Source: Candidatus Krumholzibacteriota bacterium (lineage in GTDB: Bacteria > Krumholzibacteriota > Krumholzibacteriia > JAJRXK01). From it: DNA of 64,000 nt. Made by a program: the position numbers and the translations under genes. Shown piece by piece: positions 1-42,602 of the stretch (positions within the stretch are counted from its first letter, which is position 1; every line of letters begins with the position of its first letter). A model generated the notes under the pieces. The model did no database searches, was not told the DNA's origin, and saw only the letters and a program-made list of their open reading frames with translations. The stretch covers positions 740,973 through 804,972 of the forward strand of contig CAVXTH010000006.1 of the NCBI GenBank assembly GCA_963764625.1, given 5' to 3'.

Positions 1-96
1 GCTTCTAAACTATAGGGGAGTTATCAGGCGCCCACGAATCTCGTGGCGACGCTTGGATTTCGTGTTTTCACCCGCCCTGCGATCGAGGTCCCCATC

Positions 97-651: not shown

Positions 652-664
652 GGGAGCCTCACTA

Positions 665-679
665 GGGCATTGTCATCGC
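665..679 (+). promoter_or_regulatory. candidate sigma-54 -24/-12 element (GGGCAT-N5-TCGC)
   Basis: GG and GC dinucleotides at the canonical spacing, 13 nt after the PEP-CTERM gene stop and ~120 nt before ATG 799. Motif match only. Confidence 0.25.
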
Positions 680-798
680 CTCCATAAGCGTATATGGATT
701 GCAGCGGGATCTTCTTCGAGAGAGGATCCCGCATTCGTGGGTATCTCTTTCTGAGCTGCCCAATTCTGTCATTCCATCCAGCGCAGGTACCCTGGACC

Positions 799-1776
799 AT
801 GAGATTGCCCAAGTCCTGTCGATCCCTGAGCCTCTTTCTCCTGCTCGCTCTTTCCCTGGCCTTCTGTGCCCATAGCGCCAGGGCCCAGTCTAACCGCACG
901 GTCGCCGGCCGCCCCTACCGGCTCGGAGTGGGGGACGTACTCCAGCTCTCGGTGTGGCAACAACCCACTCTCGATCGGGAACTTCGCATCCGCGACGATG
1001 GTACGGTTGTCGTACCCCTGGTCGGGGAGGTCAAGGCAGCCGGAGAGACGGTTCCAGAGTTGGAGGAACTGCTGACCAAGCGCCTGCGCTCGTTCAATCG
1101 CGACATCACCGAAGTTTCCGTCACGGTCAGCAAGTACCAGAGCCTTCAGATCTTCGTCATGGGAGCGGTCGCCAATCCGGGCGTGCATTCCTTCAAGGAA
1201 ACTCCCAACGCGTGGGATGCCATTCGCACCGCGGGGGGGCCGACGGCTACGGCGAACCTGCGTCGCGTGCGCGTGCTCCACAACGACGAGAAATCGACGG
1301 TGACGACGCTGGTCAACGTCGCTGAGGTGATCCAAGGCGAGGGCACGGGTGACCTTCCCGATCTGTCACCGGGAGACACGGTGATCGTGCCCGGCGACGC
1401 GATGCTCAATGCCTCCGACCGTGAGACGGGGGTGCAAGTTCTGGGGCAAGTGGTCAGCGCAGGTTTCTACAGCGTCGATGGCCCTACCCCAGTGCTGACG
1501 GTAATTCTGCTGGCTGGGGGCTTCAACGGAGACGGCGACCCCAGACAGGTGCGAGTGGTGCACGATTCAGGTCATGGCTCCCTCGAGGGACGCGCCGTGG
1601 ATACCACCCTTTTTCTGCAGAACGGGCAGATCAGTGGGAACCCCCTAGTGTATGCGGGCGACACGGTTTACGTAGAGAAGAAGCCATTCTCCGGTGGTGT
1701 TCTTCGAGTGCTTCCCGGGATCATAGCCTCGGTTACCGGCGTGGTCGCCCTTCTCATCAGCGTCTCCAAGCATTGA
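799..1776 (+). CDS. polysaccharide export protein (Wza/Poly_export + SLBB type)
   Basis: ORF 694..1776. ATG 799 gives signal peptide MRLPKSCRSLSLFLLLALSLAFCAHSARA. YRLGVGDVLQLSVWQQP...DDGTVVVPLVGEVKAAGETVPELEELL is typical of the Poly_export domain. Confidence 0.8.
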   Translation: MRLPKSCRSLSLFLLLALSLAFCAHSARAQSNRTVAGRPYRLGVGDVLQLSVWQQPTLDRELRIRDDGTVVVPLVGEVKAAGETVPELEELLTKRLRSFNRDITEVSVTVSKYQSLQIFVMGAVANPGVHSFKETPNAWDAIRTAGGPTATANLRRVRVLHNDEKSTVTTLVNVAEVIQGEGTGDLPDLSPGDTVIVPGDAMLNASDRETGVQVLGQVVSAGFYSVDGPTPVLTVILLAGGFNGDGDPRQVRVVHDSGHGSLEGRAVDTTLFLQNGQISGNPLVYAGDTVYVEKKPFSGGVLRVLPGIIASVTGVVALLISVSKH

Positions 1777-1795
1777 GTTCGCCAGCACGTGGAGC

Positions 1796-3526
1796 ATGAG
1801 CATGGGTTCTAGCCCCAGGACATCGCATCATCGGCAGGGGACATCCAACTCGCCGAAGGCTGGGAGCGAGGGCTTCGATCCCCATCGTCTGTGGCAGATC
1901 GTCCGTCGTCGTCGCTTTTACCTGATCCTGCCGGTCCTGGTGATCGGAAGCGTCCTGGGGGCGGGCGTCACCACCATCTCGCCTCTGTACCAGTCGAGCG
2001 TGCGAATCCTCCTGGAAGACCGGAGCACCGGCACCGACGTCGACAAGCTCATGACGAGGGAAGCCAGGCGTGTCCGGGATCTCGAGAACCTGGTGATGGT
2101 GCGCGAGACCCTCATGTCCCAGCAGCTTCTCACCCGGGTGATTCGGAATCTCCAACTGCGCAACGACAAGGAGATCCAGGAGCAAGCACGCATTCTTCAG
2201 GAGACCAAACTTCCCGACCAGACCTTGAGCTTGATTGCGGAGAGGCTCCTCGTCAATCGCCTGCGCCACAAGCTCTTCGTCAGCAATCAGGAGGGGAATC
2301 TCTTCTTGATCAGCATGGAGGACAACGACCCCTACACCGCGTACAAGCTTACCGAAGCGGTGACGGAGGCCTTCGTCGAAGAGATGAATCGCCGCCGGGT
2401 CGAAGGTCTGATCGAGACGACAAGCTTCACCGATCAACAGTTGGAGAGCGCCCGGCAGACTCTCAAGGACGCCGAAACCGAACTCGAGAAGTTCAAGCGC
2501 ACGCGGGTCATCCAGGATACCCTGAGCAACAACCCGGTCACCGAAAAGAACAGTCGCAAGGCCGAGGGGATCCTCCAGGACGTGAAACTCGATCTCACCG
2601 AGAACGAGCGCGAGATCACTCGCATCGACAACGAGCTCTACTCCCTCGTCGCTTCGCCTCCTCGCGATCCTCGCTACAAGGACGACCCGCAGGTCCAGGG
2701 AATAAGGGACCGCCTCGAGGCTCTAGAGAAACAGGACTACGTCGCGCAACTCGGCAGTTCGCCGGTCCCGGCTTCGGGGATCACGCCGGAACAGCAGCGC
2801 ATCGGAGTGCAGCGGAATCGTCTGAACACGCGATTGCTGGAGATCATGAGCGACAGCTATCCGGAGCTACCCAAGCATGCCCTGGAGATTTTAGCCCGCA
2901 AGGCTGAACTCACGATCGTCGACGAAGTGTTGCGGCGGCACCACGACCGGATCCAGACCGAGTACGACGGGTTCCAGCAGCGCATCAAGGGAAAGCCCGC
3001 GCTCGAAGCCGAGCTGCGTCGTCTCGAACAAAAGGTCTCCAACGAGGAGTCCATCTACAACCACCTGATCGACGCCGAGAACTCGAATGAACTGAGGCTC
3101 GCGGCCAACGAGAGCGGGTTCGGGATCTCGGTTCGCGTGCTGGAGCCGGCGTTCAAGGCGATCGCGCCTTTCAAGCCGGACAAGAAGAAGATCGCCCTCA
3201 TGGGCGTAGTCCTGGCGCTCGGCATCGGCATGGGCGCGATCTTCCTGGCCGAATACGTCGATTCCAGTTTCAAGGACGTGGACGAGGTCGAACACATCCT
3301 GGGTCTGCGCGTGGTGGGAACTCTTCCGCGCTTCGCGGATACCTATGAGTGGAGTCTCAAGAGGAAGCGGACGGTGTTCGTCTGGAGAACCGCGTTCATC
3401 GTCACTCTGGTGACCGCGATGCTTCTCTTCGTACTCTACTATCGGCAGGCCATGATTCACGACCGCATCCAGCCGCTCAGTCCCTTGACCGAGAGCGCCG
3501 CCCCCGCGCGAGAGGACTCGCCGTGA
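1796..3526 (+). CDS. polysaccharide chain-length determinant protein (Wzz/GumC family)
   Basis: N-terminal TM (FYLILPVLVIGSVLGAGV), a long coiled-coil periplasmic region and a C-terminal TM (IALMGVVLALGIGMGAIFLAEYVD). Sits directly before a BY-kinase. Confidence 0.8.
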   Translation: MSMGSSPRTSHHRQGTSNSPKAGSEGFDPHRLWQIVRRRRFYLILPVLVIGSVLGAGVTTISPLYQSSVRILLEDRSTGTDVDKLMTREARRVRDLENLVMVRETLMSQQLLTRVIRNLQLRNDKEIQEQARILQETKLPDQTLSLIAERLLVNRLRHKLFVSNQEGNLFLISMEDNDPYTAYKLTEAVTEAFVEEMNRRRVEGLIETTSFTDQQLESARQTLKDAETELEKFKRTRVIQDTLSNNPVTEKNSRKAEGILQDVKLDLTENEREITRIDNELYSLVASPPRDPRYKDDPQVQGIRDRLEALEKQDYVAQLGSSPVPASGITPEQQRIGVQRNRLNTRLLEIMSDSYPELPKHALEILARKAELTIVDEVLRRHHDRIQTEYDGFQQRIKGKPALEAELRRLEQKVSNEESIYNHLIDAENSNELRLAANESGFGISVRVLEPAFKAIAPFKPDKKKIALMGVVLALGIGMGAIFLAEYVDSSFKDVDEVEHILGLRVVGTLPRFADTYEWSLKRKRTVFVWRTAFIVTLVTAMLLFVLYYRQAMIHDRIQPLSPLTESAAPAREDSP

Positions 3527-4227
3527 AAGAGACCGAGATCCATCCCCAGTCGGCGCTGCTTTCGACTGACCCCAAGGACTTCGAAACCCCCCTGGCGGTG
3601 GAGATGCGGCGCCTGTACACCAAGCTGCGTCCGCCTCTGAAGGAACTCTCCGCACAAGTCCTCATGTTAACTTCAGCGGAGCGGGGAGAGGGCAAGAGCA
3701 CGACCTCGGCCAATCTGGCCGTGACGGTGGCCCGACACCGGCGCACGAAGACGGTTCTCGTCGACGCCGACCTGCGGCGGCCCACCATTCACAAGCTCTT
3801 CGAGATGCCACGGGAGCCGGGGCTGAGCGACATCCTGGAGGGGAAGTGCACCATCGAGCAGGCCTTACGCCCGACCCCTCATTCGTTTCTTCAGGTGATT
3901 CCCAGTGGCTCCCGCGAGGAGCACCCGGGCGGACTTTTCGAAAGACAGCGCCTGAGCGATACCATCGAGCACTTGCGCAAACGATTTGAAATCGTCATCT
4001 TCGATGCGCCCCCCGTACTACCCGTCGCGGATACCACGATCCTGGCGGGAGAGATGGATGGAGTCTTGATGGTGATCATGGGCGGACTCACTCCACGCGA
4101 AGTGGTTCGACGGGCGCGAGAGATCCTCGAGGATTCGAATGCGCGCCTACTCGGGGTCGTACTCAACAACGCGTCGCGCGTTTTGCCCTACTACTACGAA
4201 TACAGCTACTACGGCGAAGAAGAGTAG
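3523..4227 (+). CDS. tyrosine autokinase (BY-kinase, CpsD/CapB/EpsG type)
   Basis: GTG 3523 overlaps the upstream TGA (GTGA). Walker A GEGKST, Walker A' VLVDADLRRP, Walker B VIFDAPP. C-terminal Tyr cluster YYYEYSYYGEEE. Confidence 0.85.
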   Translation: MKETEIHPQSALLSTDPKDFETPLAVEMRRLYTKLRPPLKELSAQVLMLTSAERGEGKSTTSANLAVTVARHRRTKTVLVDADLRRPTIHKLFEMPREPGLSDILEGKCTIEQALRPTPHSFLQVIPSGSREEHPGGLFERQRLSDTIEHLRKRFEIVIFDAPPVLPVADTTILAGEMDGVLMVIMGGLTPREVVRRAREILEDSNARLLGVVLNNASRVLPYYYEYSYYGEEE

Positions 4228-5210
4228 TGGTCTGTCTCTTCTCTCAACTCTCTCCACCTCAAGTCACGCCGGGAAGCGAAGGTTACGATAAGACCGAGCA
4301 AAACCGCGAACCAGAGAGTCGCTCCCCGTATCAGCAGGGTCGCCGCGGTGGCCGAGGATGAAGCAATCCCCGCCTCCCGTAGCACGCCGAACAAGACGGC
4401 TTCTGTCCCCACCAGGCCGCCCGGCATGAAGGTGAGATTTCCTGCGATCGTACTGCCAGCGTAGATCCAGCTGGCCTGCATGAGGGGAATGGACGTCCCC
4501 AGCCCCACGAGAATTAGATAGAGCCCCACGCATTCGGCGAACCACGCCCCCAAACTCATGAGGAGTGCGGGGATGAGTTTCGCGGTGGAAAAAAGGCGAG
4601 CGCCGTCGTGCAAGCTTTCGCTCAGTGCGGCGGCCCGATTGGAAGTCCACGGGAGTTTCTGCAGCAGATCCAGAAGCACCTGTTGCACGCGTGGACGACC
4701 TAGCAGGACCCCGCACAGGAGGGTCAGAAGGAGGAGGGCGAAGATGCGCGGTTGCAGATTCCGCTGCCCGTGGCCGATCCCGGCCAGGGCCAGAATCGTC
4801 AGCGCGAATGCGTCGGTGATCCGGTCGACCAGAAGCACCGGAGTGGTGCTTCGAATCGAGTACCCGTGATTCCTCCGCAGAAAGACCAGTTTGTAGATCT
4901 CACCGAGTCGCGCGGGCGTCACGACCATGGTGAGGCACGAAAAGTAGATCCGGGCGTTGGAAACGATGGGCACCCGGATGTTCAGGGCCTTCAAGAGGAA
5001 GTCCCATTTGAGAAAGCGTAAGCCGTAATTCAAGAGGCTCAAGGCCAACACTGGCAGGATGAGAGATCGATCGAAGACCTGCCAGGCCTCGTGCAGGGGC
5101 TTTCTCGCCAGAAAGAAGGCGAGGAGCACGACGAGGAGGGCGAGAGCCGCGAAATAGACGAAGAGATGCCGGCTCAGAAAGATTCGAATGCGTGAGTTGG
5201 CGTCGGACAT
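4209..5210 (-). CDS. polytopic membrane protein, flippase-like / LPG-synthase TM-domain (UPF0104) family
   Basis: ORF 4209..5294. ATG at 5210 (MSDANSRIRIF...). About 8 hydrophobic helices. Family resemblance judged by eye only. Confidence 0.5.
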   Translation of the reverse strand: MSDANSRIRIFLSRHLFVYFAALALLVVLLAFFLARKPLHEAWQVFDRSLILPVLALSLLNYGLRFLKWDFLLKALNIRVPIVSNARIYFSCLTMVVTPARLGEIYKLVFLRRNHGYSIRSTTPVLLVDRITDAFALTILALAGIGHGQRNLQPRIFALLLLTLLCGVLLGRPRVQQVLLDLLQKLPWTSNRAAALSESLHDGARLFSTAKLIPALLMSLGAWFAECVGLYLILVGLGTSIPLMQASWIYAGSTIAGNLTFMPGGLVGTEAVLFGVLREAGIASSSATAATLLIRGATLWFAVLLGLIVTFASRRDLRWRELREETDHYSSSP

Positions 5211-5218
5211 GGGGAATT

Positions 5219-5233
5219 TGGCTTGGATCCTGC
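5219..5233 (+). promoter_or_regulatory. candidate sigma-54 -24/-12 element (TGGCTT-N5-CTGC)
   Basis: GG/GC spacing is canonical. Lies in the 72-nt divergent gap, ~50 nt before ATG 5283. Motif match only. Confidence 0.3.
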
Positions 5234-5282
5234 CCAGTCTGTGGATTGGGGACGGTCGAAAAGGGAGCGTAGAGTCTTGCAC

Positions 5283-6212
5283 ATGAAGCGTCAATCAAGA
5301 CGAGTCCAATTCTTTCTCAGCGTCGCGGGATGCATCCTCCTCTTCCTTTCCGTGGCTCCTAGGCCCCTTTTGGCTCAAGAGTCCAGTGGAACGTTTCTGA
5401 CGATTCCCGTCGACGTCGTGGGCGCCGGCATGGGTGGAGCAGATGTTGCACGAATCAGCCACGGCATTTCGCCTTTCGCGAACCCGGCCGGCTCGGCCGT
5501 GAATTTCAGTTCCGCCACCTTGACCCACGAGCTCTGGCTCGCCGAACAGCGCGTCAACGCGCTGGCGATCCAGATGCCCTTGCAAAAAGGTCGCTCGGGG
5601 CTGGCCCTCACCGGGAGAATGGTGAGCCACGCGACCGTCCCTCGCTTCGATGCCAATGGCAATCGCATGGGTTCGCTCGAGCCCCAGGACTTGAGCCTGG
5701 GCGCTACCTACGCCATGCGCTTCGGCATGGTGACCCTCGGAGCCGGCGCACGGTACATCCAGGAGAACCTGGAAGTGGCCAAGGGAACCGGCTTCTCCTT
5801 CGATCTCGGAGCGCTGCTCGACGTGGGACCGGCCCGGTTCGGGCTGGCTGGCACCAACCTCTTCGGCTACCTGAATTACGATGGGAGCAGCTATGACCCC
5901 CCGCGGAGAATCGCGGGAGGGGTCGCGGTCTCTCCGGGCTTCCATGAGCTCGAATTCGTGGCCCAGTACAACGATTGGCGCTACGGGGACCAGGACCTCG
6001 CGCTGGGGGCGCAGTGGTCGGCCCTGCGCGGCGTTTTGAACCTGCGCGCCGGATATGTCGCACTGACCCAATCCTCGCAGGAGGAGAGCTTCTCTCCCGT
6101 GCGGTTCGGGTTCACGATCGCCCATTCCGGACTCGCTCTGGATTATGCCTACGTTCCGCACAAGGAACTGGGGCAAGCGCATTTGCTTTCCCTCCGCTGG
6201 ATGAAGCAGTAG
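5283..6212 (+). CDS. outer-membrane beta-barrel protein (PorV/PorQ-like N-terminal motif)
   Basis: Signal peptide MKRQSRRVQFFLSVAGCILLFLSVAPRPLLA. FLTIPVDVVGAGMGGADVA...NPAG motif. Alternating hydrophobic strands and an aromatic-rich C-terminus. Confidence 0.45.
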   Translation: MKRQSRRVQFFLSVAGCILLFLSVAPRPLLAQESSGTFLTIPVDVVGAGMGGADVARISHGISPFANPAGSAVNFSSATLTHELWLAEQRVNALAIQMPLQKGRSGLALTGRMVSHATVPRFDANGNRMGSLEPQDLSLGATYAMRFGMVTLGAGARYIQENLEVAKGTGFSFDLGALLDVGPARFGLAGTNLFGYLNYDGSSYDPPRRIAGGVAVSPGFHELEFVAQYNDWRYGDQDLALGAQWSALRGVLNLRAGYVALTQSSQEESFSPVRFGFTIAHSGLALDYAYVPHKELGQAHLLSLRWMKQ

Positions 6213-6218
6213 TCTCTC

Positions 6219-6290
6219 GACCCGGACCGTTCGCCTCGAGGGCGGCCGGGTCGATGAAATCTGGCTTCGATCGCTCCCCTTCGGGGGGCG
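6219..6290 (+). terminator. two GC-rich hairpins between the OMP gene and the exosortase gene
   Basis: GACCCGG...CCGGGTC (6219-6252, with an inner CGCC/GGCG stem) and GCTCCCC-ttcg-GGGGGGCG (6272-6290). No T tract, so terminator function is uncertain. Confidence 0.3.
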
Positions 6291-6324
6291 CCATCAGGGG
6301 GGGCGTCGTGCCCGCAAGGACGCG

Positions 6325-7152
6325 ATGAAATCCATGCGGCTCCGCTTCACCGTGGTCTTCGCCGCGCTGGCCTTCGTCTTGGCCTATGCCCGGATCCTGC
6401 AGAGCTGGATCGCGGACCTGTACTCCGATCCCAACTATGGCCATGGACTCGTCCTGGGTTGCCTTCTGCTTGCCCTGGGAGCGTGGCGTAGCCTGAAGCG
6501 CGATCCGGTGCAGCATCCGGGTGGGCGCAATTTCTGGTGGGTCTGGGGCCTTCTCGCGCTGGGAATGGCCGTGGGCGGCCTTCTGGTCGCCAATGACAGC
6601 CTCATGCGCTGGTCCCTGGTCCTGGCCGCTCTGGCCTGCGTGGAGGCGCTCGCCCCGGTTTCGATGGTGAGAGCGTGGCGAGGCCCCCTTCTGGCCCTGC
6701 TGCTCTTGGTGCCCTGGCCCTACGTGATCTACTATCTCGCGACTGCGCATCTCCAGCGGATGTCCTCGGCCGCCGCCGCGTTCCTACTTCATGCGAGTGG
6801 CGTGCCCTTGGCCCGAGACGGGAATCTGCTCCACTTTTCCGGCTACGATCTCGAGGTGGTGGAGGCCTGCAGCGGGTTGCGTAGCCTCTTGGTCATGAGT
6901 GCTCTGGCCGCCTTTCTCGCCGCCGTCGCGCGCCTGTCCTCGCGCCGGACCATCTTCATGCTCTTGCTTTCCGTTCCCCTCGCATTGGGGGCGAATCTGT
7001 TCCGGCTCGTCCTCACCGGATACGGGGCCCAGTTGGGGGGACCCAAGACGGCGGAGAACATCTTCCATCTCGGCGGCGGACTCTTGAGTTTCGCGCTCGG
7101 CGTGATCGTCTTGGGGTTGGCTGCGTTCTATCCGCGCGGGAGAAAGGCATGA
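6325..7152 (+). CDS. exosortase (XrtA/EpsH-like)
   Basis: DPNYGHGLVL motif near the N-terminus, catalytic-Cys motif EACSGLRSLL, later NLFRLVL (Arg) and HLGGG (His). About 8 TM helices. Confidence 0.85.
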   Translation: MKSMRLRFTVVFAALAFVLAYARILQSWIADLYSDPNYGHGLVLGCLLLALGAWRSLKRDPVQHPGGRNFWWVWGLLALGMAVGGLLVANDSLMRWSLVLAALACVEALAPVSMVRAWRGPLLALLLLVPWPYVIYYLATAHLQRMSSAAAAFLLHASGVPLARDGNLLHFSGYDLEVVEACSGLRSLLVMSALAAFLAAVARLSSRRTIFMLLLSVPLALGANLFRLVLTGYGAQLGGPKTAENIFHLGGGLLSFALGVIVLGLAAFYPRGRKA

Positions 7153-7784
7153 AGCGAGGGACTCGCGGTCTCCTCCTGGGTCTGGGATTTCTCGGCGTGG
7201 CCGGGCTCTCCCATCGGCTGCAGACTCCGGTCGCTGAGGCGGAGTGGTCGAAGGACTTCGCGACCAGTGTACTCCAGGAAGAAGGAGTCACTCAACTTCC
7301 AGTCTCCTTGCAGGCAAGGGAGGCGCTTGGCGTCGACCGCTACCGTTTCGTGGAGGTGGAGAACGAGGATTGGGCACCGGTGTGGATCTACGCCGGGTAC
7401 TACGCGGGGCAGAGAACCAATGCGCAAGTTCACGCCCCCGAACACTGTTATCCGGGTGCGGGCTGGGGAATCGTTGCAAGTAGAGTGGTGCAAAGGAATC
7501 AAGAGTCGCTGCACGAGCTCTCGATCGAAAAGCGCGGTGAGAAGCGTCTCGTCTGGTATGCCTATCGCACGCGGCGCGGGCAAGCCACGAGCGCACTCGG
7601 ACTCAAGCTGGATCAGATGTTCTCCGCTCTGCGGGGCGCCCCGCGCGACGCGCTTCTGCTACGTCTCAGCACCCCCGTTCTGGACGTGGAGGGAGAGAAG
7701 GTAGCGCAACGGAGACTGGCGGAATCCTGGGACACCTACGGCAGCGAGGTCATCGGCTGGTACGAGAGGAGGGGAGACCGGTGA
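7149..7784 (+). CDS. epsI: exosortase-associated EpsI family protein
   Basis: ATGA overlap with the exosortase stop. N-terminal TM. HAPEHCYPGAGW motif typical of EpsI. Confidence 0.8.
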   Translation: MKRGTRGLLLGLGFLGVAGLSHRLQTPVAEAEWSKDFATSVLQEEGVTQLPVSLQAREALGVDRYRFVEVENEDWAPVWIYAGYYAGQRTNAQVHAPEHCYPGAGWGIVASRVVQRNQESLHELSIEKRGEKRLVWYAYRTRRGQATSALGLKLDQMFSALRGAPRDALLLRLSTPVLDVEGEKVAQRRLAESWDTYGSEVIGWYERRGDR

Positions 7785-8623
7785 ATTTCCTGCGCTTCAT
7801 CGAAGATCTGATTCGCCTGGTGGTCCTCGCCCTCTTGGATCTGAAACGGGCCGGCGTGCGGCTCATCCTGTTTGCCGCACTTGCGGCGGAAGTCCTGGTG
7901 CTCATCATTTGCGCCGACCCGACCTTTCCCGCCTGGAGTGGAGTGGTGATCCCCCTCCTGGAGCGCGTCTTCGGCGCGTACTACCTCCACTATCCCCAGT
8001 CCTACATCGGTCTTCCCGCTACCGGCGCGGTGGGTAAGCTCTTGATCGATCTCTTCGTGAGTCCTTTCGTGTTGGCCTGGTGCGGAATGGCGATTCTCCG
8101 AGTCACCGGAGACGAAAGGGCGAAGAGACAATCTCTGTTCTCCTCGAGCTTGCACTACTATGCGCCCTTCTTCCTCTTGACCTGTCTGGAGATTGGCGTC
8201 TGGGTTCTGTTCTACGGACTGCCCGTCTACCTGCTCAACACCAGGTTCAATTTGGCGTACCGAACTCATGCCGCGGTCACCATCTTCGGAAGTCTTCTTC
8301 CGCTCTTGCTCCTGACCCCTCTCTTCTTCGTTCCGCCGCATCTGCTGCGTGAGGGGAAGGGGCTGGGCCGCGCGATCGGCTCCAGCTTCTCTCGCGCGCG
8401 CAAGGATCCTGCGTGGCCTTTGGCCTTCGTGGCCTTGCCCTGGCTCGCGAGCGTGCCCCTTTCGCTGGCACTGCAGCGTTCGGCACGCCTGGCTGCGCAA
8501 CTTCGGCCGGAAATCGTGTTGGTGGCGGTTGCGTTGCAAGCCGCGATCTTTCTCTTGTTCGGGTTCATCGCACTGGACGCCGCCATCCGGATCTTCCTCA
8601 AACCCCGGAGCCGTGGATTATGA
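7781..8623 (+). CDS. uncharacterised polytopic membrane protein, start/stop-overlapped with epsI
   Basis: GTGA overlap with the epsI stop. About 6 hydrophobic helices. I recognise no family. Confidence 0.6.
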   Translation: MNFLRFIEDLIRLVVLALLDLKRAGVRLILFAALAAEVLVLIICADPTFPAWSGVVIPLLERVFGAYYLHYPQSYIGLPATGAVGKLLIDLFVSPFVLAWCGMAILRVTGDERAKRQSLFSSSLHYYAPFFLLTCLEIGVWVLFYGLPVYLLNTRFNLAYRTHAAVTIFGSLLPLLLLTPLFFVPPHLLREGKGLGRAIGSSFSRARKDPAWPLAFVALPWLASVPLSLALQRSARLAAQLRPEIVLVAVALQAAIFLLFGFIALDAAIRIFLKPRSRGL

Positions 8624-10125
8624 GAGTTCGGCATGCCTGCTTTCTGCTCCTGGTCGTGCTCTGCGGCTGCGGGAGACAGGACATGCGTGCTCGTTACCTG
8701 GCAGAGCGCGCGCGCTATTGGGCCGAGCGCGAGGCGATCAGTTTTTCCCTCGAAGCGGATCCCAAGATTCGCAGCGGATATTATCGCACCGGTCTCGCGT
8801 ACATCGAGGTGGCGCAGCGCGCCGATCCCAGCCAGGTGCACGGCAAGAGTGATCCGAAGATTCTCGCCGAGCTCTCCTCTCTCCAGGCCTGGGGGCGCAT
8901 CCAGTCGGGGGATGCCTTCCTGCGCGCCGGTCGCTTCGATCTGGCCGAAGTCCAACTCCGCGCGGCTCAGGAGGAGGGTCCCATGGTCCTGCGGCGACAG
9001 GCGGCGCTGCTGCGCGCGGAGTCGGCGCGCACGCAGGAACGATGGGAGGAGGCGATCACGTTTTATGGACAGTTTCAGGACCTCATGCAGGAGCCGCCGG
9101 TGCCCTCGACCCTCGACCCCCGAGTCCTGAGACTGCCTCTGGTCTTGGTGCAGGATCTCTTCGGCCGAGCAGACAGCGAGCTCGTGGAGAAAGCTCGACT
9201 CGAGGGGCATCGCTTCTATGCCTGGATCCAGAAGCAGTGGGCGGGCCAGCCCACCGGGGACAGGGCTGCCTTTCTGGACCACCGGTTGGACATCGCGACG
9301 CAGAAGTGGAAGGAGGCCGAGCTGAGTCTGAGCCGCTACGAGGCGCGTGACCTGTCCAGCGGGGACCGTTTGAACGCGCTCTTCGATCGGGCCGAGATCC
9401 TGGCCCATGGACTCGGCAAGCTCGCTCGCGCGGACTCCCTTTACTTGAGGGTCATTGAGGAGTCCGAAAACGAGACCCTGCGCGGCCTGGCCCATTTGCG
9501 ACGCGCGGAAGTTCTCCTGACGATGAAGCAGCCCGATGCCGCCATGCGCGAACTCGACAGCGTGGTGAGCGACTTTCCCAACGAGCGACGTCTCGCCGCG
9601 GCCGCGCTCCTGCGCAAGTCCGAAGTGCTTCTGGACAGCTCCGACTGGTCCGGTGCACAGAAGACGCTACGGCGCCTCATCCAACGCTATCCCGACACGG
9701 CCGCGGGCCTGCAAGCGCCGATGCACCTAGTGGATATCCAAGAACGACGGGGTGGCGGGAGCTCGGCCAGCAACGAGCTCCATCGCGCCGTCGAGCAGTA
9801 TCAGCGCTTGATCTCCGGCCACGCCTCGGCCGGCGCGGTCGGCCTCGAGGCGAGAGAGAACTCGGTGGATTGTCTGCTCCGATTGCACGAATACGAGGAC
9901 GCCCTGCGCCAGCTCGAGCAGATCCATCACATCCTCGGTCGCGACAAGAGAGGGGGTGAGGCGCTGCTGAGGGCGGCGGAGATTGCCCGCGACGATATGA
10001 AGAACCCCAGGCTGTGCCGCCTCTATCTGGAGTGGGTCGACGAGCAGGTACCGGGAAGCCGGGCTGCGCTTCGGGCGCGAGAAATGCTCGAGGAGATGGG
10101 TTTCACGCCCAAGAGTGGCAGCTGA
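8620..10125 (+). CDS. TPR-repeat lipoprotein (PrsT-like by context)
   Basis: ATGA overlap with the upstream stop. MRVRHACFLLLVVLCGCG lipobox. Helical repeat-rich sequence. Confidence 0.7.
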   Translation: MRVRHACFLLLVVLCGCGRQDMRARYLAERARYWAEREAISFSLEADPKIRSGYYRTGLAYIEVAQRADPSQVHGKSDPKILAELSSLQAWGRIQSGDAFLRAGRFDLAEVQLRAAQEEGPMVLRRQAALLRAESARTQERWEEAITFYGQFQDLMQEPPVPSTLDPRVLRLPLVLVQDLFGRADSELVEKARLEGHRFYAWIQKQWAGQPTGDRAAFLDHRLDIATQKWKEAELSLSRYEARDLSSGDRLNALFDRAEILAHGLGKLARADSLYLRVIEESENETLRGLAHLRRAEVLLTMKQPDAAMRELDSVVSDFPNERRLAAAALLRKSEVLLDSSDWSGAQKTLRRLIQRYPDTAAGLQAPMHLVDIQERRGGGSSASNELHRAVEQYQRLISGHASAGAVGLEARENSVDCLLRLHEYEDALRQLEQIHHILGRDKRGGEALLRAAEIARDDMKNPRLCRLYLEWVDEQVPGSRAALRAREMLEEMGFTPKSGS

Positions 10126-10153
10126 GCATGACTCGCCGCGCGTGCCTAAACGA

Positions 10154-10182
10154 TTGATTCCATAGTGTTGCGGTTCTAGACT
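10154..10182 (+). promoter_or_regulatory. sigma-70-like promoter TTGATT-17-TAGACT
   Basis: Hexamers at 10154-10159 and 10177-10182 with a 17-nt spacer, just upstream of the 10190/10214 start codons. Confidence 0.4.
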
Positions 10183-10213
10183 GTCCGCTGTGTCCACCAG
10201 CCGAAAGGGCCTC

Positions 10214-11329
10214 ATGCGCCAGATACTCCTGCTCTTGCTTCTCATTTTGCTCCTGCCGATTCGCGCGCGGGGGCAAGAGAAGTCACCCAATGCCTTTCGC
10301 ATAACTTCACAGGTGGCGGAGAGTGAGATTGTCCTGATCGGTGGCGGTCTCAAGCAGTCCTCCATGGCGCCGCTCGCGATCGATGAGCTCGCAACGGGGC
10401 GCTACGAAGTTCGGCTCTATCGCGGGGGAGTTCTCTGCGCGAAAACCACAATGGATGCGGGGGACAGACTGCGGCTTTCGGATCGTCGCGGAAGCCGGGT
10501 TCTGCTTTCCGCGATCGTTCCGGGCCTGGGTCAACTGCGCGATTTCCGATGGGGGTCGGGTTTGGTTCCCATGGCCGAAGTGGGGACCGCGATCGGACAG
10601 GCCTTCCGCTACTCCGCGAAGGTGCACGATCAACAGCAGGTCTTGGATACGGTGGTGGCGCAGACTTCATCCGCGGACAAACTAACCCCGGGCTACGGAC
10701 GGCTCTCGGCCCATTTGCAGGACAACGTCTGGCTGGAGGAACAGACCCGCAACAACTACGCCTACCTGGCACTCTACTCGCACGTGGGCAACATCCTCCA
10801 CGCAGCGGTACGGCGCGGCCCGTACCGTTTCGAGCTTTCAGGGACGCGGAGCGTCGCGGCCCGGTACCTACCGCCCTCGAAAACAAGCGTGGGATTTCTC
10901 TCGCTTCTCTACCCGGGCCTGGGGCAGACCCGCCTCGGCTACGAGACGCGCGGACTCTTGTGGTCCTCGCTGGGCTTCGTGGCCGGAATGACCCTGGTGG
11001 AGACCCAGCGCTTCCTCGATCAACGAACAGTGAGCGAGCAGGACGCCGGGCGGATCGTGGCCTTGGAAGCCGGACAGGGAGGAGTCACCCCCGAGGCTCT
11101 GGCCCGTTGGGCGACGGCGCAGGGAGATGTCGAGAGCGCGAAATCACGCAGGCGTGCGGTGATTTTCGGCATGGGAGCCCTCTGGATTCTGAATGTCGCG
11201 GATGCGATTTTCCTGGAGGACGACGCGCCGGTTCCCCTGGAAAACGGGCGAATCGGGGCGCTAGGAGTCGATTTGCGAGTCGCGTGGGTGGGAGAGGCCC
11301 CCGGTCTGAGTCTTGCCCGACGCTTCTGA
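10214..11329 (+). CDS. uncharacterised membrane protein with PEGA-like N-domain and repeated PGLGQ motifs
   Basis: ORF 10190..11329. ATG 10214 gives signal peptide MRQILLLLLLILLLPIRARG. A beta-rich domain (GRYEVRLYRGGVL) is followed by SAIVPGLGQ and SLLYPGLGQ motifs next to hydrophobic segments. Confidence 0.55.
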   Translation: MRQILLLLLLILLLPIRARGQEKSPNAFRITSQVAESEIVLIGGGLKQSSMAPLAIDELATGRYEVRLYRGGVLCAKTTMDAGDRLRLSDRRGSRVLLSAIVPGLGQLRDFRWGSGLVPMAEVGTAIGQAFRYSAKVHDQQQVLDTVVAQTSSADKLTPGYGRLSAHLQDNVWLEEQTRNNYAYLALYSHVGNILHAAVRRGPYRFELSGTRSVAARYLPPSKTSVGFLSLLYPGLGQTRLGYETRGLLWSSLGFVAGMTLVETQRFLDQRTVSEQDAGRIVALEAGQGGVTPEALARWATAQGDVESAKSRRRAVIFGMGALWILNVADAIFLEDDAPVPLENGRIGALGVDLRVAWVGEAPGLSLARRF

Positions 11330-11549
11330 TTTCAGCGGCCGGGATCTTGCCTGGCCGAAGGGGAAAGAACGAGCTAATCTCGTCCTTGACAAGATGGGGT
11401 GAGGCCTACCGGCGCCCGCTCCACTTCGTGGCCTTCCGGGCATGCCAGCAGAAGTCCCAGCTTCGAGCTCCAACCGGAAGATCACGGTCCAGATCAGCTC
11501 TCAGTTTCGAGTTGAGACGCTTGCCGGAATCGGTGTGGAAAGGTCCAGA

Positions 11550-12347
11550 ATGCAGCTCCACCCCTCGATGATCGAGCATGTGGGTACATCGCGAGCTTAC
11601 GACGCCCCGCAGCTGAAGTATCTCGGGAGCCCCATCCCTCTCTACGGGCAAGTTCCTCGCTGGAAGCGCGTCGTCAAGCGTGGCTTCGACATCGTCTTCT
11701 CCTTGGTGGGCTTGACCCTCTTTATCGTCCTCTTGCCCTTCCTCGCTCTGGCGATCAAGATCGAATCGCGTGGGCCGGTTTTCTACGGACAGATTCGGGT
11801 GGGTATCAACCGGCGCGGCCGTGAACGGCGGCGGGAAGAATCCGAGGCACCGGAAATCGGTGAAAGGCGCTGCCGGCAACAGAGTCGAGAAGTGCGCAAG
11901 GTCATTGCGGAAGGTCGACCCTTCCAGATCTGGAAACTGCGTACGATGTACATCAATTCCGAGTCGGAGGGGATGCGCTGGGCGAGCGAGAACGATCCAC
12001 GGATCACTCGCATCGGACGTCTCTTGCGTCTCACCCGCATGGATGAATTCCCGCAGTTCTACAACGTGCTACGTGGTTCGATGAGCGTGGTGGGTCCACG
12101 GCCCGAGCGGCCGCCGTTCATCTCGCTCCTCAGCCGCGAGGTCCCCGGCTATCTGGAGCGACTCCGCTTCAAGCCCGGGATCACCGGTCTCGCCCAGGTC
12201 GAGAGCGGCTACGACGAATCGCTCGATAGCGTGCACAGGAAAGTGGCCCTCGACCTGGAGTACATCACCAAGTTCGGTCTGCTGCGCGACCTCCGGCTCC
12301 TGGTGGCGACGGTTCGGGTCGTACTGACCGGGCGGGGGGCTCTCTAG
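11550..12347 (+). CDS. polyprenyl-phosphate glycosyl-1-phosphate transferase (bacterial sugar transferase, WbaP/EpsB type)
   Basis: ORF 11442..12347. ATG 11550 is preceded by GGAAAGG. KRGFDIVFSLVGLTLFIVLLPFLALAIKIESRGPVFY, WKLRTM, DEFPQFYNVLRGSMSVVGPRPERP. Confidence 0.85.
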   Translation: MQLHPSMIEHVGTSRAYDAPQLKYLGSPIPLYGQVPRWKRVVKRGFDIVFSLVGLTLFIVLLPFLALAIKIESRGPVFYGQIRVGINRRGRERRREESEAPEIGERRCRQQSREVRKVIAEGRPFQIWKLRTMYINSESEGMRWASENDPRITRIGRLLRLTRMDEFPQFYNVLRGSMSVVGPRPERPPFISLLSREVPGYLERLRFKPGITGLAQVESGYDESLDSVHRKVALDLEYITKFGLLRDLRLLVATVRVVLTGRGAL

Positions 12348-12365
12348 GGCGTTTTGCGCCTTTTG
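12347..12365 (+). terminator. short hairpin + T tract after the sugar transferase gene
   Basis: GGCG-ttttg-CGCC followed by TTTT. The stem is only 4 bp. Confidence 0.35.
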
Positions 12366-12460
12366 GTTGGCCCGCATCTCCTCGTTTCCCGTGAACGCCA
12401 TTCCCCCTCAGACCGTCCTGGACGGCTCAGTGCGGGCCGGCTGGGGAATTTAGCGCAGCT

Positions 12461-12475
12461 GGGCACGATCCTTGA
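12461..12475 (+). promoter_or_regulatory. candidate sigma-54-like element GGGCACG-N4-TTGA
   Basis: Nine of eleven defined consensus positions match, but the -12 GC is GA. Sits immediately upstream of the kinase region. Confidence 0.25.
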
Positions 12476-12622
12476 TGGACCATGACGTGAACTCCTGGGG
12501 GAGTGCTGCGAGCGTCATGATCCACCGCCTGTTCATCTTGTCCTATTTCCTTTTGCCCGCTGTCGCGTTCTCTCTGCGCGGGCGAGATCTCGGACTTTGC
12601 CGTCCTCGGCCTCTGTTGGGGC

Positions 12623-14550
12623 GTGGCCGCGGTCCTCTTTTTCTTCCACCGTCGGCATCTGCTCGCGAACTGCGCCCCGGCGCCGGCGGACTCCCACGAT
12701 GCGACGCGGGGCCACGGATTCCTCGATCTCTATCGCGGCCTCGGCACGGACTACTCCCGCCTGAAGCAGGGCTACGAGGACGCTCGCCTCCGTCTGGTGA
12801 ACACCAACATTCAGCTCTTGAGCGTGCGCGAGTTGTGGCAGGCTCTCGCGCGACCGGGGCGACTGGAACACACGGTGGACGGCGCCTTGGTCTACTGTCA
12901 TCGCGCCAGCGGGTTTCAAGAGGTCATGATCCTGCGCATCGAACGCCGGTCGCGCGAACTGGTGGGCCGGTGGCTTCATCCCGGCACCAACGGATCGGTG
13001 GTCGAAACCATGCGCTGGGCCCTCGGCGGTCTCGGTGGTACCGTCGCGCGGGCGATGCGCAATCCCAGCAGCCTCCTGGTGGAGGAGAGCCACGCCGAGT
13101 CGTTGTTGACGGTGAACGGGGAGTGCCCGGCCGGCTTTCAGGATCACGGAGCACATCTGGTGGTTCCGCTGCTGACCCCTCTTCCGCGTCACGAGTGCCT
13201 CAAGGGCGGATGGCTCTACCACGACGACTGTCCGGTGTTCGAGCTGGCTCCTTCCGAACAAATCCGTGAGAGCTTTCCCTCCACTGAGAGAGCGCTCGAT
13301 CTCACTCCGTGCATCTCCTGTCGTCACTATCCACTGTACGGCTTGATGGTGGTGACCGATCGGGCGCGTCCGGCGGGAATTCGCAAGGCGGATCAGCTGA
13401 CTCTGGAATCGCTGAGCTACGCGGTGAGCGCGGTCCTGCAGAACGCGAGTCTCTACCACGAACTCGAAATGGGGGAGAGCTTCCGCGACCAAATCCTCGA
13501 CGGGATGAGCAACGGCCTCATCACCACCGACGACCGCGGCCGCGTGATCTTTAGCAATCGCCGCGCGCAGGAACTGCTTTCGACTTCGGGGCGAACACTT
13601 GCGGGAAAGAAACTCGACTCGCTCCTGTGGGGCTTCCCGGCGGAATCTCCCGCCAAGGCCGCGCTCTTGGGAGGACAGCCGAATCTGCGCTGGGAAGGAC
13701 GCATGGGCCTTGAAGAAGAGAAGTCCATTCCCGTGCTCCTGACCCTGGCGAAATACCGCCGTGAGGAAGGCGGATTGGTTGGCGTTATCGCGGTGATCGA
13801 GGATCTCAGCGCAGTGCACCTGATGCAGGAGGAGATCCGGCATCTCGACACCCTCGCCGCCATCGGCCGTTTCGCCAGCAGCATGGCGCACGAGATTCGC
13901 AACCCCCTGGGTGGTATCAGCGCCGGGATGGACTATCTCGCCCGCAAGGGCACGTTCTCCCTGGATGAGGCCGAGAGCGTCGCCGTCATCCAGGAGGAAA
14001 TCCAGCGCCTGGACGGCATCATTCGCAATCTCTTCCAGGTGGCGCGACCTGCGCGTCTGCAGAAGCAAGAGACGCCGCCACTGGAAACCGCGCTGAGAAT
14101 TCACCGCAGCATCAAGGACTTGGCCGAGGAGCGGAGAGTGGAGATTCGCGTCGAATGCGCGGACACGCTGCCCAGCTACCACATCGATCGGGATCAGATC
14201 CACCAGGTTCTCTTCAACCTGCTCAAGAACGCGATCGAAGCCAGCGAAGAGGGTAGCACTGTCGTTCTCAAGGTGGAGAAGGCAGCCGGATCCCAACCGA
14301 AGCCCGAGCTCGAAGAGGCCATCGTCTTCGAAGTCATCGATACCGGTCCGGGGATCGAGCACGAGGATCTGGCGCACATCTTCGAACCGTTCTTTTCCAA
14401 GAAGGCTGAAGGCACGGGGCTCGGCCTCTTCGTCTCACACAACATCGTGGAGCGTCACGGCGGAACGCTCCAGGCGTTCAGTCGACCGGGCGAGGGAACC
14501 TGTATCCGGGTTCTCTTGCCCCTCGCGCCCTCAACCATCGGGAGCCACTC

Positions 14551-14554
<4 letters not shown>
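12623..14554 (+). CDS. sensor histidine kinase (GAF-like + PAS + HisKA + HATPase_c; PrsK-like by context)
   Basis: H-box FASSMAHEIRNPL, N-box LFNLLKNAIEA, G1 DTGPGI, G2 GTGLGL. The N-terminus is uncertain (see frameshift finding). Confidence 0.85.
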
Positions 14555-15948
<1,394 letters not shown>

Positions 15949-16019
15949 CGATGCACGAAGCGCACGGGTCAAAACGCGAGAGAGAGGCGGCTTGTCGCCC
16001 CGGCTCGCGTTTTTGCCGA

Positions 16020-16520
16020 GTGGGGAGGAGGGGAGGGTTGCTCTCTGTTCTCCTCGTGCTCACTTCTCTTCAGGGATGTGGTTACGGTCTGACTCCAGGC
16101 CGCGTGAAGCCGGGCCTTCAGAGCGTCGCGGTTCCCTACTTCGAAAACGAGACCACCGAACCCGAGCTCGAGGTTTCGCTCACCGACGCGATCATCGCAG
16201 GCATCGTCGCGGACCGAACTCTGCGCCTCACCGACGAGCAGCAAGCCGACGCGCTCATTCTGGGGAAGATCACCTACTTCAAAATCCAGGAGGTATTCTT
16301 CGCCGAGAATCGACAGGCGCAGGAATACGAAGTGCGCGTGGCCTGCGAAGTGAGCCTGGTCGACCGCGCCACCGGTGATATCATCGTCAAGCCCACGACC
16401 ATTCGCGGCAAAGGTGATTACTTCACCGACGAGGGCCCCGAGGGAGAGGATAACGCGCGCCAGCAGGCAGCCGACGAACTGGTGCGCGCGATTCTGGCCC
16501 TGGTGATCGAGGAGTGGTGA
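16020..16520 (+). CDS. lptE: LptE-like outer-membrane lipoprotein
   Basis: ORF 15951..16520. GTG 16020 gives (M)GRRGGLLSVLLVLTSLQGCG with a lipobox. VAVPYFENETTEPELEVSLTDAI resembles LptE. The conserved lptE-holA adjacency is present. Confidence 0.6.
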   Translation: MGRRGGLLSVLLVLTSLQGCGYGLTPGRVKPGLQSVAVPYFENETTEPELEVSLTDAIIAGIVADRTLRLTDEQQADALILGKITYFKIQEVFFAENRQAQEYEVRVACEVSLVDRATGDIIVKPTTIRGKGDYFTDEGPEGEDNARQQAADELVRAILALVIEEW

Positions 16521-17566
16521 TGGCGAGTCCGAAGATCCTCACCCCCGAAGAGCTGAGAAGTGCCTTGGCCAAGGAGGACCCACGGCCAGTGTATCTGCTC
16601 GCGGGACCGGATACCTGGAGGGCGGAGCGCACGGCGCAGTGGTTGAAGGAGAAAGTACTCGATCCGCAGTCGGCCGAATTCAACGCGCAAGTTCTGCAGG
16701 CCGACGAGTGTGTTCCCCAGGCCATCGTCGAGGCCGCCTCCGCCTATCCGATGTTCGGCACCCGGCGCTTCGTGTGGGTTCGTCATGCCGAGGCACTCGG
16801 CACCGGGTCGGCGATCGAAGGCCTCTTGAGCTACCTGGGGAGTCCTGCCGCCAGCACAGTGCTCGTCTTCACCAGCGCCAAGCTGGACAAACGCCTCAAG
16901 TTCACCACCGCCTGCGCGCGCGCCGGCTGCGCGGTGGATTTCCAGAACCTCAAGGGCTCCGCCATCCTCATGCAGGTGGCGCGCCAGGCGCAGTCCCTCT
17001 CGCTCACCCTCGAAAAGTCCGCCATCCACGAGCTGATCGATCTGGTGGGCGACGACCTCGGCGAACTGCAGACCGAGCTGGAAAAGCTGGCGCTCCTGCG
17101 GGAAGGGAACGCTCCCATCGGACCGAAAGAGGTGCGCCTCCTCGTTGCGCGCTCGCGCGACCTGGACGCCTTCGCGGTGGCGGATCTGCTCAGCGGGGAA
17201 GACCCCCTGCCGGCACTGCGCGCCTGGACCAAAGTTCGGGTGGGAGGGGGCGACCCCATCGGCACCGCCGCCATCCTCAGCTGGCGTCTGCGCCAACTCG
17301 CCTCCTTTCGCAGCGCCCTGGAGGGGGGAGAGAGCCCCGAATCGGCCGCCCGTCGCCTGGCGCTTCCGCCCTGGCAGGCGCGGCGCCTGGCGGCCCTGGC
17401 CCAGAGCTCGACCCTCGACCAATTGCAGCGAACCCTCTTCCACATGCGTCAGGCCGACCGCCGTGCCAAATCCTCCAGTCTGGGCGCTCCCCTGGCCTAT
17501 GATCTCGCCCTTCTGGCCTGGGCGGTGGAGTCCCTCACGGGCGTCCGTACAACGCGCCGGCCTTGA
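16520..17566 (+). CDS. holA: DNA polymerase III delta subunit
   Basis: ATG 16520 overlaps the lptE TGA, with GAGGAG 5 nt upstream. PVYLLAGPD... N-terminus and length fit HolA. Confidence 0.8.
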   Translation: MASPKILTPEELRSALAKEDPRPVYLLAGPDTWRAERTAQWLKEKVLDPQSAEFNAQVLQADECVPQAIVEAASAYPMFGTRRFVWVRHAEALGTGSAIEGLLSYLGSPAASTVLVFTSAKLDKRLKFTTACARAGCAVDFQNLKGSAILMQVARQAQSLSLTLEKSAIHELIDLVGDDLGELQTELEKLALLREGNAPIGPKEVRLLVARSRDLDAFAVADLLSGEDPLPALRAWTKVRVGGGDPIGTAAILSWRLRQLASFRSALEGGESPESAARRLALPPWQARRLAALAQSSTLDQLQRTLFHMRQADRRAKSSSLGAPLAYDLALLAWAVESLTGVRTTRRP

Positions 17567-17660
17567 CATCCGGGCCCTCCGCCGTACCTTGGCCGCATCC
17601 CAGGGGCCCTCAGACGAAGTCGGTCCTAGTGCGTACTTTTCAGGGAATAGGAGTAGCTCC

Positions 17661-17987
17661 ATGGCAGCACCCGTCGCGGTCGACACCCAGACCTTCCCGG
17701 CCGAGGTCCAGAAGGCCACTGGCCTCGTCATCGTCGATTTCTGGGCTCCCTGGTGCGGTCCGTGCCGCATCATCGGACCGGTCCTCGAGGAGATTGCCAA
17801 GGAGCAGGCCGCGACCGTCAAGGTGGCCAAGGTGAACGTCGACGAGAACCAACAGCTCGCCGGCCAGTTCAGCATCATGAGCATCCCGACACTTTTGTTC
17901 TTCAAAGACGGCAAGGTGGTCGAGCAGATCGTGGGCGCGGTGCCCAAGGACAAGATCCTGCAGACCATCGAGCGCCACAGCTCCTGA
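17661..17987 (+). CDS. trxA: thioredoxin
   Basis: AGGAG lies 7 nt before ATG 17661. WAPWCGPCR active site. About 108 aa. Confidence 0.95.
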   Translation: MAAPVAVDTQTFPAEVQKATGLVIVDFWAPWCGPCRIIGPVLEEIAKEQAATVKVAKVNVDENQQLAGQFSIMSIPTLLFFKDGKVVEQIVGAVPKDKILQTIERHSS

Positions 17988-18043
17988 GCCTAAGGTAGTT
18001 TCCTTAATTCCCGTTCGAACAGCCTGTCGATACATGAGTTCCA

Positions 18044-18074
18044 GGGGAGGGGAATTGGGATTCCTCTCCCTTTG
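18044..18074 (+). terminator. intrinsic terminator of trxA
   Basis: GGGAGGGGAAT-tggg-ATTCCTCTCCC (11 bp with one G-U pair) followed by TTT. Confidence 0.6.
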
Positions 18075-18087
18075 TGGAAACTATAGT

Positions 18088-18115
18088 AGTTAACATAATG
18101 TATCTTATGCGCAAT
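18088..18115 (-). other. dif: dif chromosome-dimer resolution site (XerC/XerD target)
   Basis: Minus strand reads ATTGCGCATAA-GATACA-TTATGTTAACT. E. coli dif is GGTGCGCATAA-TGTATA-TTATGTTAAAT. XerC arm 9/11, XerD arm 10/11. Lies in an AT-rich non-coding gap where gene orientation converges. Confidence 0.8.
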
Positions 18116-18192
18116 CTTAGGTAAGGCCATGGCCCCAGGCCGAAGGACTCCGCAGGGCCTTCCCTCGCCAGCTCGTCCGCAGGAAAGGGTTC

Positions 18193-18573
18193 TCAGTCGC
18201 TGACCGGGATCTTCTCGGCGTAGTCCTCGAGCACGGGGATCCGGAAGGATTCTCCGGCCAAGGCCTTCACGAAACCCAGGATACTCAACACCAGGAATCC
18301 GGCGAAGGCCGCCAGCTCGAGCAGGATCTCCACCAGGAAGCCCAGGACGGGAATCCTCCCCACCGTGTTGCTGATGATGAGGAGGAAGCAAATCACGGCT
18401 GCTTCGACCAAGAAGAGCGCGAAGGCCTGGCGGGCGTGCTGCGTCAGGAAGGCGCTCTTGTTCTTGCGGCTCAGGGAGAAGAGAGAAACCGGACCCAGGT
18501 AGGCGATCGCCGCCAGCCAGCGCTGTTTGGTCTCCCCGATGGAATGCGGAAGGATGGGTTCGTGATCGGTCAT
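18193..18573 (-). CDS. small membrane protein (DUF4870-like)
   Basis: WLAAIAYLGP...FLTQHARQAFALFLVE motif and 3 TM helices. Confidence 0.55.
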   Translation of the reverse strand: MTDHEPILPHSIGETKQRWLAAIAYLGPVSLFSLSRKNKSAFLTQHARQAFALFLVEAAVICFLLIISNTVGRIPVLGFLVEILLELAAFAGFLVLSILGFVKALAGESFRIPVLEDYAEKIPVSD

Positions 18574-39426: not shown

Positions 39427-39761
39427 AGCAGAGAATCACCGCCCGAGCTCGGAGCCACCGAGCTGGAGAAATCATCCAGTGGGGCCGCGCGAAGCCGGGC
39501 GATCTCGCGCTGGAATTCGTCCCGCTCACGGCGGAGTTTGGCCGCGTCGAGTCGAAGGCGAATTTCGCGGACCACGGATACGAGCATACCCACCACGAAG
39601 CCGAAGAGAGCTGAACCGAAGATGATGATCCACAGCGGCACCATGTGTTGGGTCCAGGCGAAGAGTTTCACCGTGACCCCGGGCGACTCGTTGTTCTGTA
39701 CCGCGACCACGACGAAGAAGACCAGGAGAATGACGAAGAAAATGGTTTTAAGCAGCCACAC
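39423..39761 (-). CDS. lapA: LapA (YciS)-like inner-membrane protein
   Basis: Two TM helices followed by a charged coil (RLRLDAAKLRRERDEFQREIARLR). 4-nt overlap with the lapB start. Confidence 0.7.
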   Translation of the reverse strand: MWLLKTIFFVILLVFFVVVAVQNNESPGVTVKLFAWTQHMVPLWIIIFGSALFGFVVGMLVSVVREIRLRLDAAKLRRERDEFQREIARLRAAPLDDFSSSVAPSSGGDSLL

Positions 39762-41091: not shown

Positions 41092-41092
41092 C

Positions 41093-42460: not shown

Positions 42461-42530
42461 GACTTCTCCCTTCTGGCTGGTTCGAGGCGCGCGATCCGGG
42501 GTCGATCGAGCATCAGGCCACACATCGAGA

Positions 42531-42563: not shown

Positions 42564-42602
42564 GCTGCACACGTCTCGCTCACGAATCGCGAGGCGCGGG
42601 GC

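Follow-up and report, generated by a model that had tools for sequence, protein, structure and literature searches.

The stretch of DNA analysed here (the window) is 64,000 nucleotides long and contains two blocks of genes that converge on a gap of 205 nt, which separates the stop of trxA (17987) from the stop of a gene for a small DUF4870 membrane protein (18193) and holds a 28-bp sequence that is very probably a dif site. A dif site is the spot near the replication terminus where XerC and XerD separate chromosomes that have become fused into dimers. The preliminary description of this DNA had proposed the element and had placed it in an AT-rich non-coding stretch between the convergent trxA (17661-17987, plus strand) and a minus-strand gene (18193-18573). 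Both parts of this placement agree with the sequence: among 100-nt stretches of the window, GC content is lowest at 18025-18124, in the intergenic gap, at 41% against a mean of 63% (the next lowest value is 46%), and gene orientation switches in the same gap. The features of the locus are as follows.

1 to 18087, plus strand: left arm; plus-strand genes predominate and the net GC skew is positive between about 4 kb and 16.6 kb, consistent with a replichore running left to right
17661 to 17987, plus strand: trxA (thioredoxin), last gene of the plus-strand block converging on the site; 127.5 bits with TIGR01068 (cutoff 96.8)
18043 to 18072, plus strand: G+C-rich hairpin of 13 bp between trxA and the site, downstream of trxA, from RNA folding
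18088 to 18115, minus strand: very probable dif site, 28 bp, ATTGCGCATAA GATACA TTATGTTAACT; no other match in the window and none in 100 shuffles; conserved in 14 related loci
18088 to 18098, minus strand: predicted XerD-binding arm, TTATGTTAACT, 10/11 identical to E. coli dif
18099 to 18104, minus strand: central 6-bp region GATACA, the presumed place of strand exchange, which varies among relatives
18105 to 18115, minus strand: predicted XerC-binding arm, ATTGCGCATAA, assigned from its similarity to E. coli dif (9/11)
18116 to 64000, minus strand: right arm; the minus strand carries 33 of the 38 genes called and 4 of 4 tRNA genes, and the GC skew is negative, consistent with a replichore running right to left
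18193 to 18573, minus strand: gene for a small membrane protein of 126 aa with a DUF4870 domain (PF09685; 30.1 bits against a Pfam cutoff of 25), first of the minus-strand block
50808 to 51761, minus strand: xerD; TIGR02225 equivalog, 338.7 bits against a cutoff of 329.6
58960 to 59964, minus strand: xerC-like gene for a second Xer recombinase; best match TIGR02224 (XerC), 314.2 bits, under the equivalog cutoff of 335.15

The 100-nt stretch that includes the hairpin at 18043-18072 folds at -34.4 kcal/mol (z = -2.19), and the hairpin is probably the terminator of trxA. A scan for consensus terminators did not call it because its T-run is short, and the consensus scan for terminators and promoters found nothing at the dif site. 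Folding of the DUF4870 side of the gap gave no significant structure (z = 0.07), and a search of the window with Rfam returned the 4 tRNA genes and nothing else.

Read on the minus strand, the element is ATTGCGCATAA-GATACA-TTATGTTAACT; the plus strand at 18088-18115 is AGTTAACATAATGTATCTTATGCGCAAT. The dif site of E. coli is GGTGCGCATAA-TGTATA-TTATGTTAAAT. The arms of the two sites are identical at 19 of 22 positions and the layout of 11, 6 and 11 bp is exact; re-reading of the sequence reproduced the minus-strand letters, the XerC-arm match of 9/11, the XerD-arm match of 10/11 and the layout, all as given in the preliminary description. The 3 of 22 positions that differ are at the outer bases of the XerC arm, AT in the window and GG in E. 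coli, and at the end of the XerD arm, CT in the window and AT in E. coli, while the XerC core GCGCATAA and the XerD core TTATGTTAA are common to both. The centre is GATACA in the window and TGTATA in E. coli. When the window was searched with the E. coli arms separated by six free positions (N6) and up to 3 mismatches were allowed, this site was the sole match, and none of 100 dinucleotide-preserving shuffles of the window yielded any match to the same query. The second-best site in the 64 kb has mismatches at 8 of 22 arm positions, whether the arms of E. coli or those of the window itself serve as query. The 28-mer, which had been expected to be single-copy in the genome, has one copy in the 64-kb window, where it is non-coding and unique.

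Positions 7-12 of the site (CATAAG) and positions 17-22 (ATTATG) form an inner palindrome with 5 of 6 complementary pairs, which places the site above the threshold of a published genome-wide dif prediction, in which the inner palindrome needs more than 4 of 6 pairs (Kono et al., 2011, PMC3025954). Gaps between convergent genes also harbour terminators and operators, and this partial palindrome, which is AT-rich, might instead be the operator of another DNA-binding protein, or a structural spacer or terminator between convergent genes, that resembles dif by coincidence. Against this, the match to dif reaches the non-palindromic outer bases of the arms (GCG on one side, TTAAC on the other), and these outer bases distinguish XerC from XerD binding. 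Further, the match was reproduced in no shuffle (0/100), and a real hairpin, that at 18043-18072, adjoins the site. The comparison of related loci described below bears on this reading as well.

The window also contains two Xer recombinase genes, which had been described as xerD (50808-51761) and xerC (58960-59913). The first encodes a protein that scores above the XerD equivalog cutoff, aligns with E. coli XerD (PDB 1A0P) at E = 1.7e-63 and, in this alignment, contains the motifs GLRASEL, GKGNKER, HVLRHSFATH, LLGHS and QIYTH. The second, best matched by XerC, passes the model for the Xer tyrosine-recombinase subfamily (NF001399, 298.4 against 279) over the open reading frame 58960-59964; its true start may be the ATG at 59913. 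Both gene assignments of the preliminary description are right, with the reservation that, judged by these model scores, the second protein is best described as XerC-like rather than as a model-certified XerC. Both proteins have the full R-K-H-R-H-Y catalytic set when aligned to E. coli XerD (1A0P). The two genes lie 33 and 41 kb from the dif site. The uvrC gene (51764-53590, minus strand) ends 3 nt before the start of xerD, on the same strand, and uvrC and xerD are probably co-transcribed. Elsewhere in the right arm, two minus-strand open reading frames (39748-41799 and 41093-43069) overlap by about 700 nt, and both have UPF0004 and radical-SAM domains. They resemble methylthiotransferases of the MiaB/RimO type and are probably adjacent paralogues. 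The true start of the downstream frame (39748-41799) is probably lower than 41799, and the overlap with 41093-43069 would therefore vanish.

The orientation of genes and the GC skew both change at the site. Gene calling was crude, with open reading frames picked by their signature of GC3 versus GC2; it gave 12 plus-strand genes (4533 aa) and 3 minus-strand calls (790 aa) to the left of dif, one of the latter being a shadow frame over trxA. To the right of dif the minus strand has 33 genes (13204 aa), and the plus strand has 5 calls (623 aa), all short and doubtful. The strand polarity is very strong over the 46 kb from 18116 to 64000, where nearly all genes and 4 of 4 tRNA genes point toward dif. 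The local maximum of cumulative G-minus-C lies at 16655, 1.4 kb from dif, and is followed by a near-continuous fall to the end of the window. The skew of the left arm is weak, at +0.004 overall and negative across the first 4 kb. Because almost all genes point toward dif, skew and gene orientation are confounded. The locus resembles a terminus rather than an origin, since the genes converge and the skew goes from positive to negative. The E. coli KOPS motif GGGNAGGG is weakly polarised, with 13 copies directed toward dif and 6 away, a count that is confounded with the coding strand: counts of KOPS and other skewed oligomers are dominated by coding bias because nearly all genes point toward dif. 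Of the proteins of the window that were scanned with Pfam or NCBIfam, none was recognised as FtsK. Within the 64 kb, dif sits where the signals of a terminus meet; that it anchors the terminus of the whole replicon we infer from them.

The preliminary description had also proposed alignment with related genomes. A motif scan with exact arms and a free centre, run over one genome per species (185,579 species), returned 57 stretches, nine of which come from metagenome-assembled genomes (MAGs) that share the window's gene order around the site: histidine kinase, sigma-54 response regulator, lptE, holA, trxA, dif, DUF4870, TPR protein, apt and M23 peptidase. Five of these MAGs are labelled Candidatus Krumholzibacteriota (L004, L006, L043, L045 and L053), one 'uncultured bacterium' (L054), two 'Fibrobacteraceae' (L001 and L056) and one 'bacterium' (L046), and the identity of the neighbouring proteins to those of the window runs from about 90% (L004 and L045) down to 30-45%. 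At all nine loci the site lies between trxA and the DUF4870 gene with its XerC arm toward DUF4870, and each of the nine whole assemblies has one exact-arm match. These relatives place the organism of the window in Krumholzibacteriota; its own genome is absent from the species representatives scanned. As these loci were found with exact arms, the identity of their arms is given by construction, whereas position, orientation and single copy are independent of the search.

Since arm identity is uninformative in loci found by motif, relatives were also sought through proteins alone. An alignment of four HolA sequences, searched against metagenome contigs, gave 8 loci, of which 2 reach the gap (L062 and L063); homologues of the DUF4870 protein gave three further lineages (L066/L067, L068-L070 and L071). 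All five lineages found in this way have a dif-like site with 1-4 arm mismatches in the same place and orientation. Altogether, 14 of 14 related loci examined, most of them from Candidatus Krumholzibacteriota MAGs, carry a dif-like site in the matching gap and orientation. The trxA gene adjoins the site in 13 of the 14 (from spacing only in L062 and L063), and when the window is counted the DUF4870 gene is on the XerC-arm side in 15 of 15 loci. Across the 15 sites, positions 4-11 of the XerC arm (GCGCATAA) are invariant and positions 1-3 vary; on the side of the XerD arm, positions 17-23, 25 and 26 are invariant. The centre occurs as GATACA, GATGCA, CATACA, TGTATA, CATATA and TATATA, with variation at positions 12, 13, 15 and 16. 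The intergenic DNA that flanks the 15 sites is unalignable. Constrained arms around a free centre are the pattern expected of a Xer site, and the proposed alignment thus came out in favour of dif. Seven loci (the window and six relatives) extend about 3 kb or more to either side of the site, and in every one of them the skew reverses sign there, always in the same sense.

These data weigh on two of the alternatives. Fixed arms with a varying centre in the relatives are the pattern of dif and not that of a hairpin, which, together with the outer arm bases and the shuffles, makes the reading as operator, spacer or terminator highly improbable. A chance match without function is less credible still, with a probability close to nil. 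AT-rich spacers can contain short palindromes, and nothing else favours chance; none of 100 shuffles gave a match, and position and orientation are kept in 14 related loci whose flanks cannot be aligned. The conservation data effectively refute it.

One of the related loci has lost part of its surroundings. In L071, an NCBI MAG labelled Gemmatimonadetes, the DUF4870 side is retained, but an RND efflux pump and two small unknown genes take the place of trxA-holA-lptE (2161-3541); this is a rearrangement breakpoint at or beside dif.

Outside this gene order, six loci from Flavobacteriales and Bacteroidetes MAGs (L012, L014, L029, L047, L050 and L051) have identical arms, the centre TTTATA and a common right flank (tgaatttat...). 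They lie in a different gene context, without trxA or DUF4870 neighbours, and seem to be the counterpart of this dif type in Bacteroidota.

A third alternative is that the sequence is a Xer-type site but not the dif of the terminus, being either the junction or remnant of an IMEX, an element integrated at such sites, or a secondary site, with the true dif elsewhere. The replacement of the trxA side in L071 indicates that the locus can be a point of rearrangement and so favours this reading to some extent. However, an integrated IMEX needs two dif-like sites flanking it, and no site with fewer than 8 mismatches in 22 is found in the 64 kb besides that of the window; an IMEX junction was rejected on the absence of this second site. 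The flanks consist of conserved housekeeping genes (holA, trxA and apt) and not of cargo, and none of the viral contigs of IMG/VR carries the arms of the window dif, which gives no hint of phages directed at it. Each related MAG has exactly one exact-arm match, and the change of strand and skew falls at the site. Taken together, these points make a non-terminus site very unlikely.

Comparison with known systems places the site with the dif of E. coli and other proteobacteria, with which it shares the 28-bp layout of 11, 6 and 11, 19 of 22 arm positions, both cores, a pair of paralogous recombinases, a non-coding location and a change in the sign of gene orientation and skew. The host differs, being a member of an uncultured phylum, unlike E. 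coli. Predicted dif sites have been reported across 16 phyla (Carnoy and Roten, 2009, PMC2731167; Kono et al., 2011, PMC3025954), and the window site has the features on which those predictions were based, namely arm similarity, an inner palindrome and, within the window, proximity to the shift point of GC skew. The systems with a single recombinase, XerS/difSL, XerH/difH and the archaeal XerA/dif, share the function of dimer resolution at a terminus site but use one recombinase, often encoded beside the site, and other site sequences, whereas the window has two genes 33 and 41 kb away and a site of the classical XerC/XerD type.

The plasmid sites cer and psi and the pdif modules of Acinetobacter use the same recombinases and core architecture as the window site. 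In contrast to the latter, which is single and lies in a chromosomal housekeeping context, cer and psi are found on plasmids and need accessory sequences and proteins. A plasmid site of the cer/psi type was rejected because the genes of the window are of chromosomal type (secA, mutS, uvrC, holA, apt and tRNA genes), and because the flanks of the core, where about 180 bp of conserved accessory sequence would be expected, show no conservation between relatives. The pdif sites are plasmid-borne and occur as multiple sites flanking cargo genes, whereas the window has one site.

A pattern like that of pdif, absent from the window, is present in an unrelated MAG of the Polyangiaceae, JAPYTK01 (loci L002-L052, for example L026:442-6908, L039, L005 and L024), which has about 100 dif-like cores of the form TTGCGCATAA-GAGACA-TTATGTTAACT. 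The fetched blocks, 184.5 kb in total, contain 99 cores with no more than 4 arm mismatches, of which 89 have the centre GAGACA. Every core is enclosed by a repeat unit about 100-125 nt long, conserved at more than 90%. The median spacing of the cores is 1.43 kb, and neighbouring cores have the same orientation in 51 pairs and opposite orientations in 15 pairs. The modules between cores consist of 1-2 genes, all different, and their products are unrelated (an FAD monooxygenase, a BNR/Ycf48-like protein, alpha/beta hydrolases, a VWA protein, a flagellin, a cNMP-binding protein and ExbD). An integron attC was considered for the repeat and rejected, as its single-stranded fold is no better than that of shuffles and pairing of R'' with R' is not visible. 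The fetched blocks contain no tyrosine recombinase gene, and the repeat unit had zero plasmid matches. The arrangement is reminiscent of gene cassettes strung on duplex Xer sites, similar to pdif modules or to an integron lacking hairpins; a dense intergenic repeat in which a Xer site is embedded is an equally good reading. The same MAG has a single dif-like site with the same arms, other flanks and the centre GATATA (L027:4805-4831), which may be its true chromosomal dif. As the centres differ (GATATA against GAGACA), this site and the repeated cores should not recombine with each other. In addition, a stretch of 1756 nt, repeat included, is 100% identical between a Hydrogenedentota bin of sample PW10 (L015) and a JAPYTK01 contig (L019:3621-5377), and L015 probably comes from the JAPYTK01 organism, assigned to another phylum in the binning of a sister sample.

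In summary, the arms, the inner palindrome, the uniqueness of the site, the Xer genes, the switch of strand and skew and the conservation in 14 loci support the interpretation first put forward, and 18088-18115 is very probably the dif site on the chromosome of its host, a member of the uncultured phylum Candidatus Krumholzibacteriota. By analogy with XerCD/dif of E. coli and other bacteria, XerC would bind the GCGCATAA arm and XerD the TTATGTTAA arm. When sister chromosomes have been fused into a dimer by homologous recombination, the two copies of dif would meet at the division septum, and strands would be exchanged across the 6-bp centre, normally after activation of XerD by FtsK, to give two monomers. 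The position of the site, between the terminators of two convergent gene blocks, would be the place where the replichores meet. Binding, recombination, dependence on FtsK and position in the whole replicon would thus be expected of the window dif on the strength of the known systems.

The neighbourhood of the site, with lptE-holA-trxA on one side and DUF4870-TPR-apt on the other, is kept at deep divergence. Such deep conservation of a neighbourhood is not known to be typical of terminus regions. It is possible, though unlikely, that the linkage of dif and DUF4870 is functional, for example if the DUF4870 protein has a part in late segregation or division, or if terminus position is under unusually strong selection; plain inheritance of gene order is the alternative.

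No description of dif in the phylum was found among the Krumholzibacteriota papers listed, none of which concerns dif. The window dif is an ordinary example of a well-known element, in which only the host lineage is new, and it leaves the understanding of chromosome dimer resolution unchanged. For the organism itself it supplies a probable terminus marker in a contig of an uncultured phylum, by which replichores can be oriented and MAG assemblies checked. Estimates of growth rate from coverage also become easier to interpret, because the trough of coverage should fall at the site. For the family of such sites, the classical XerC/XerD dif consensus is extended to another deep lineage.
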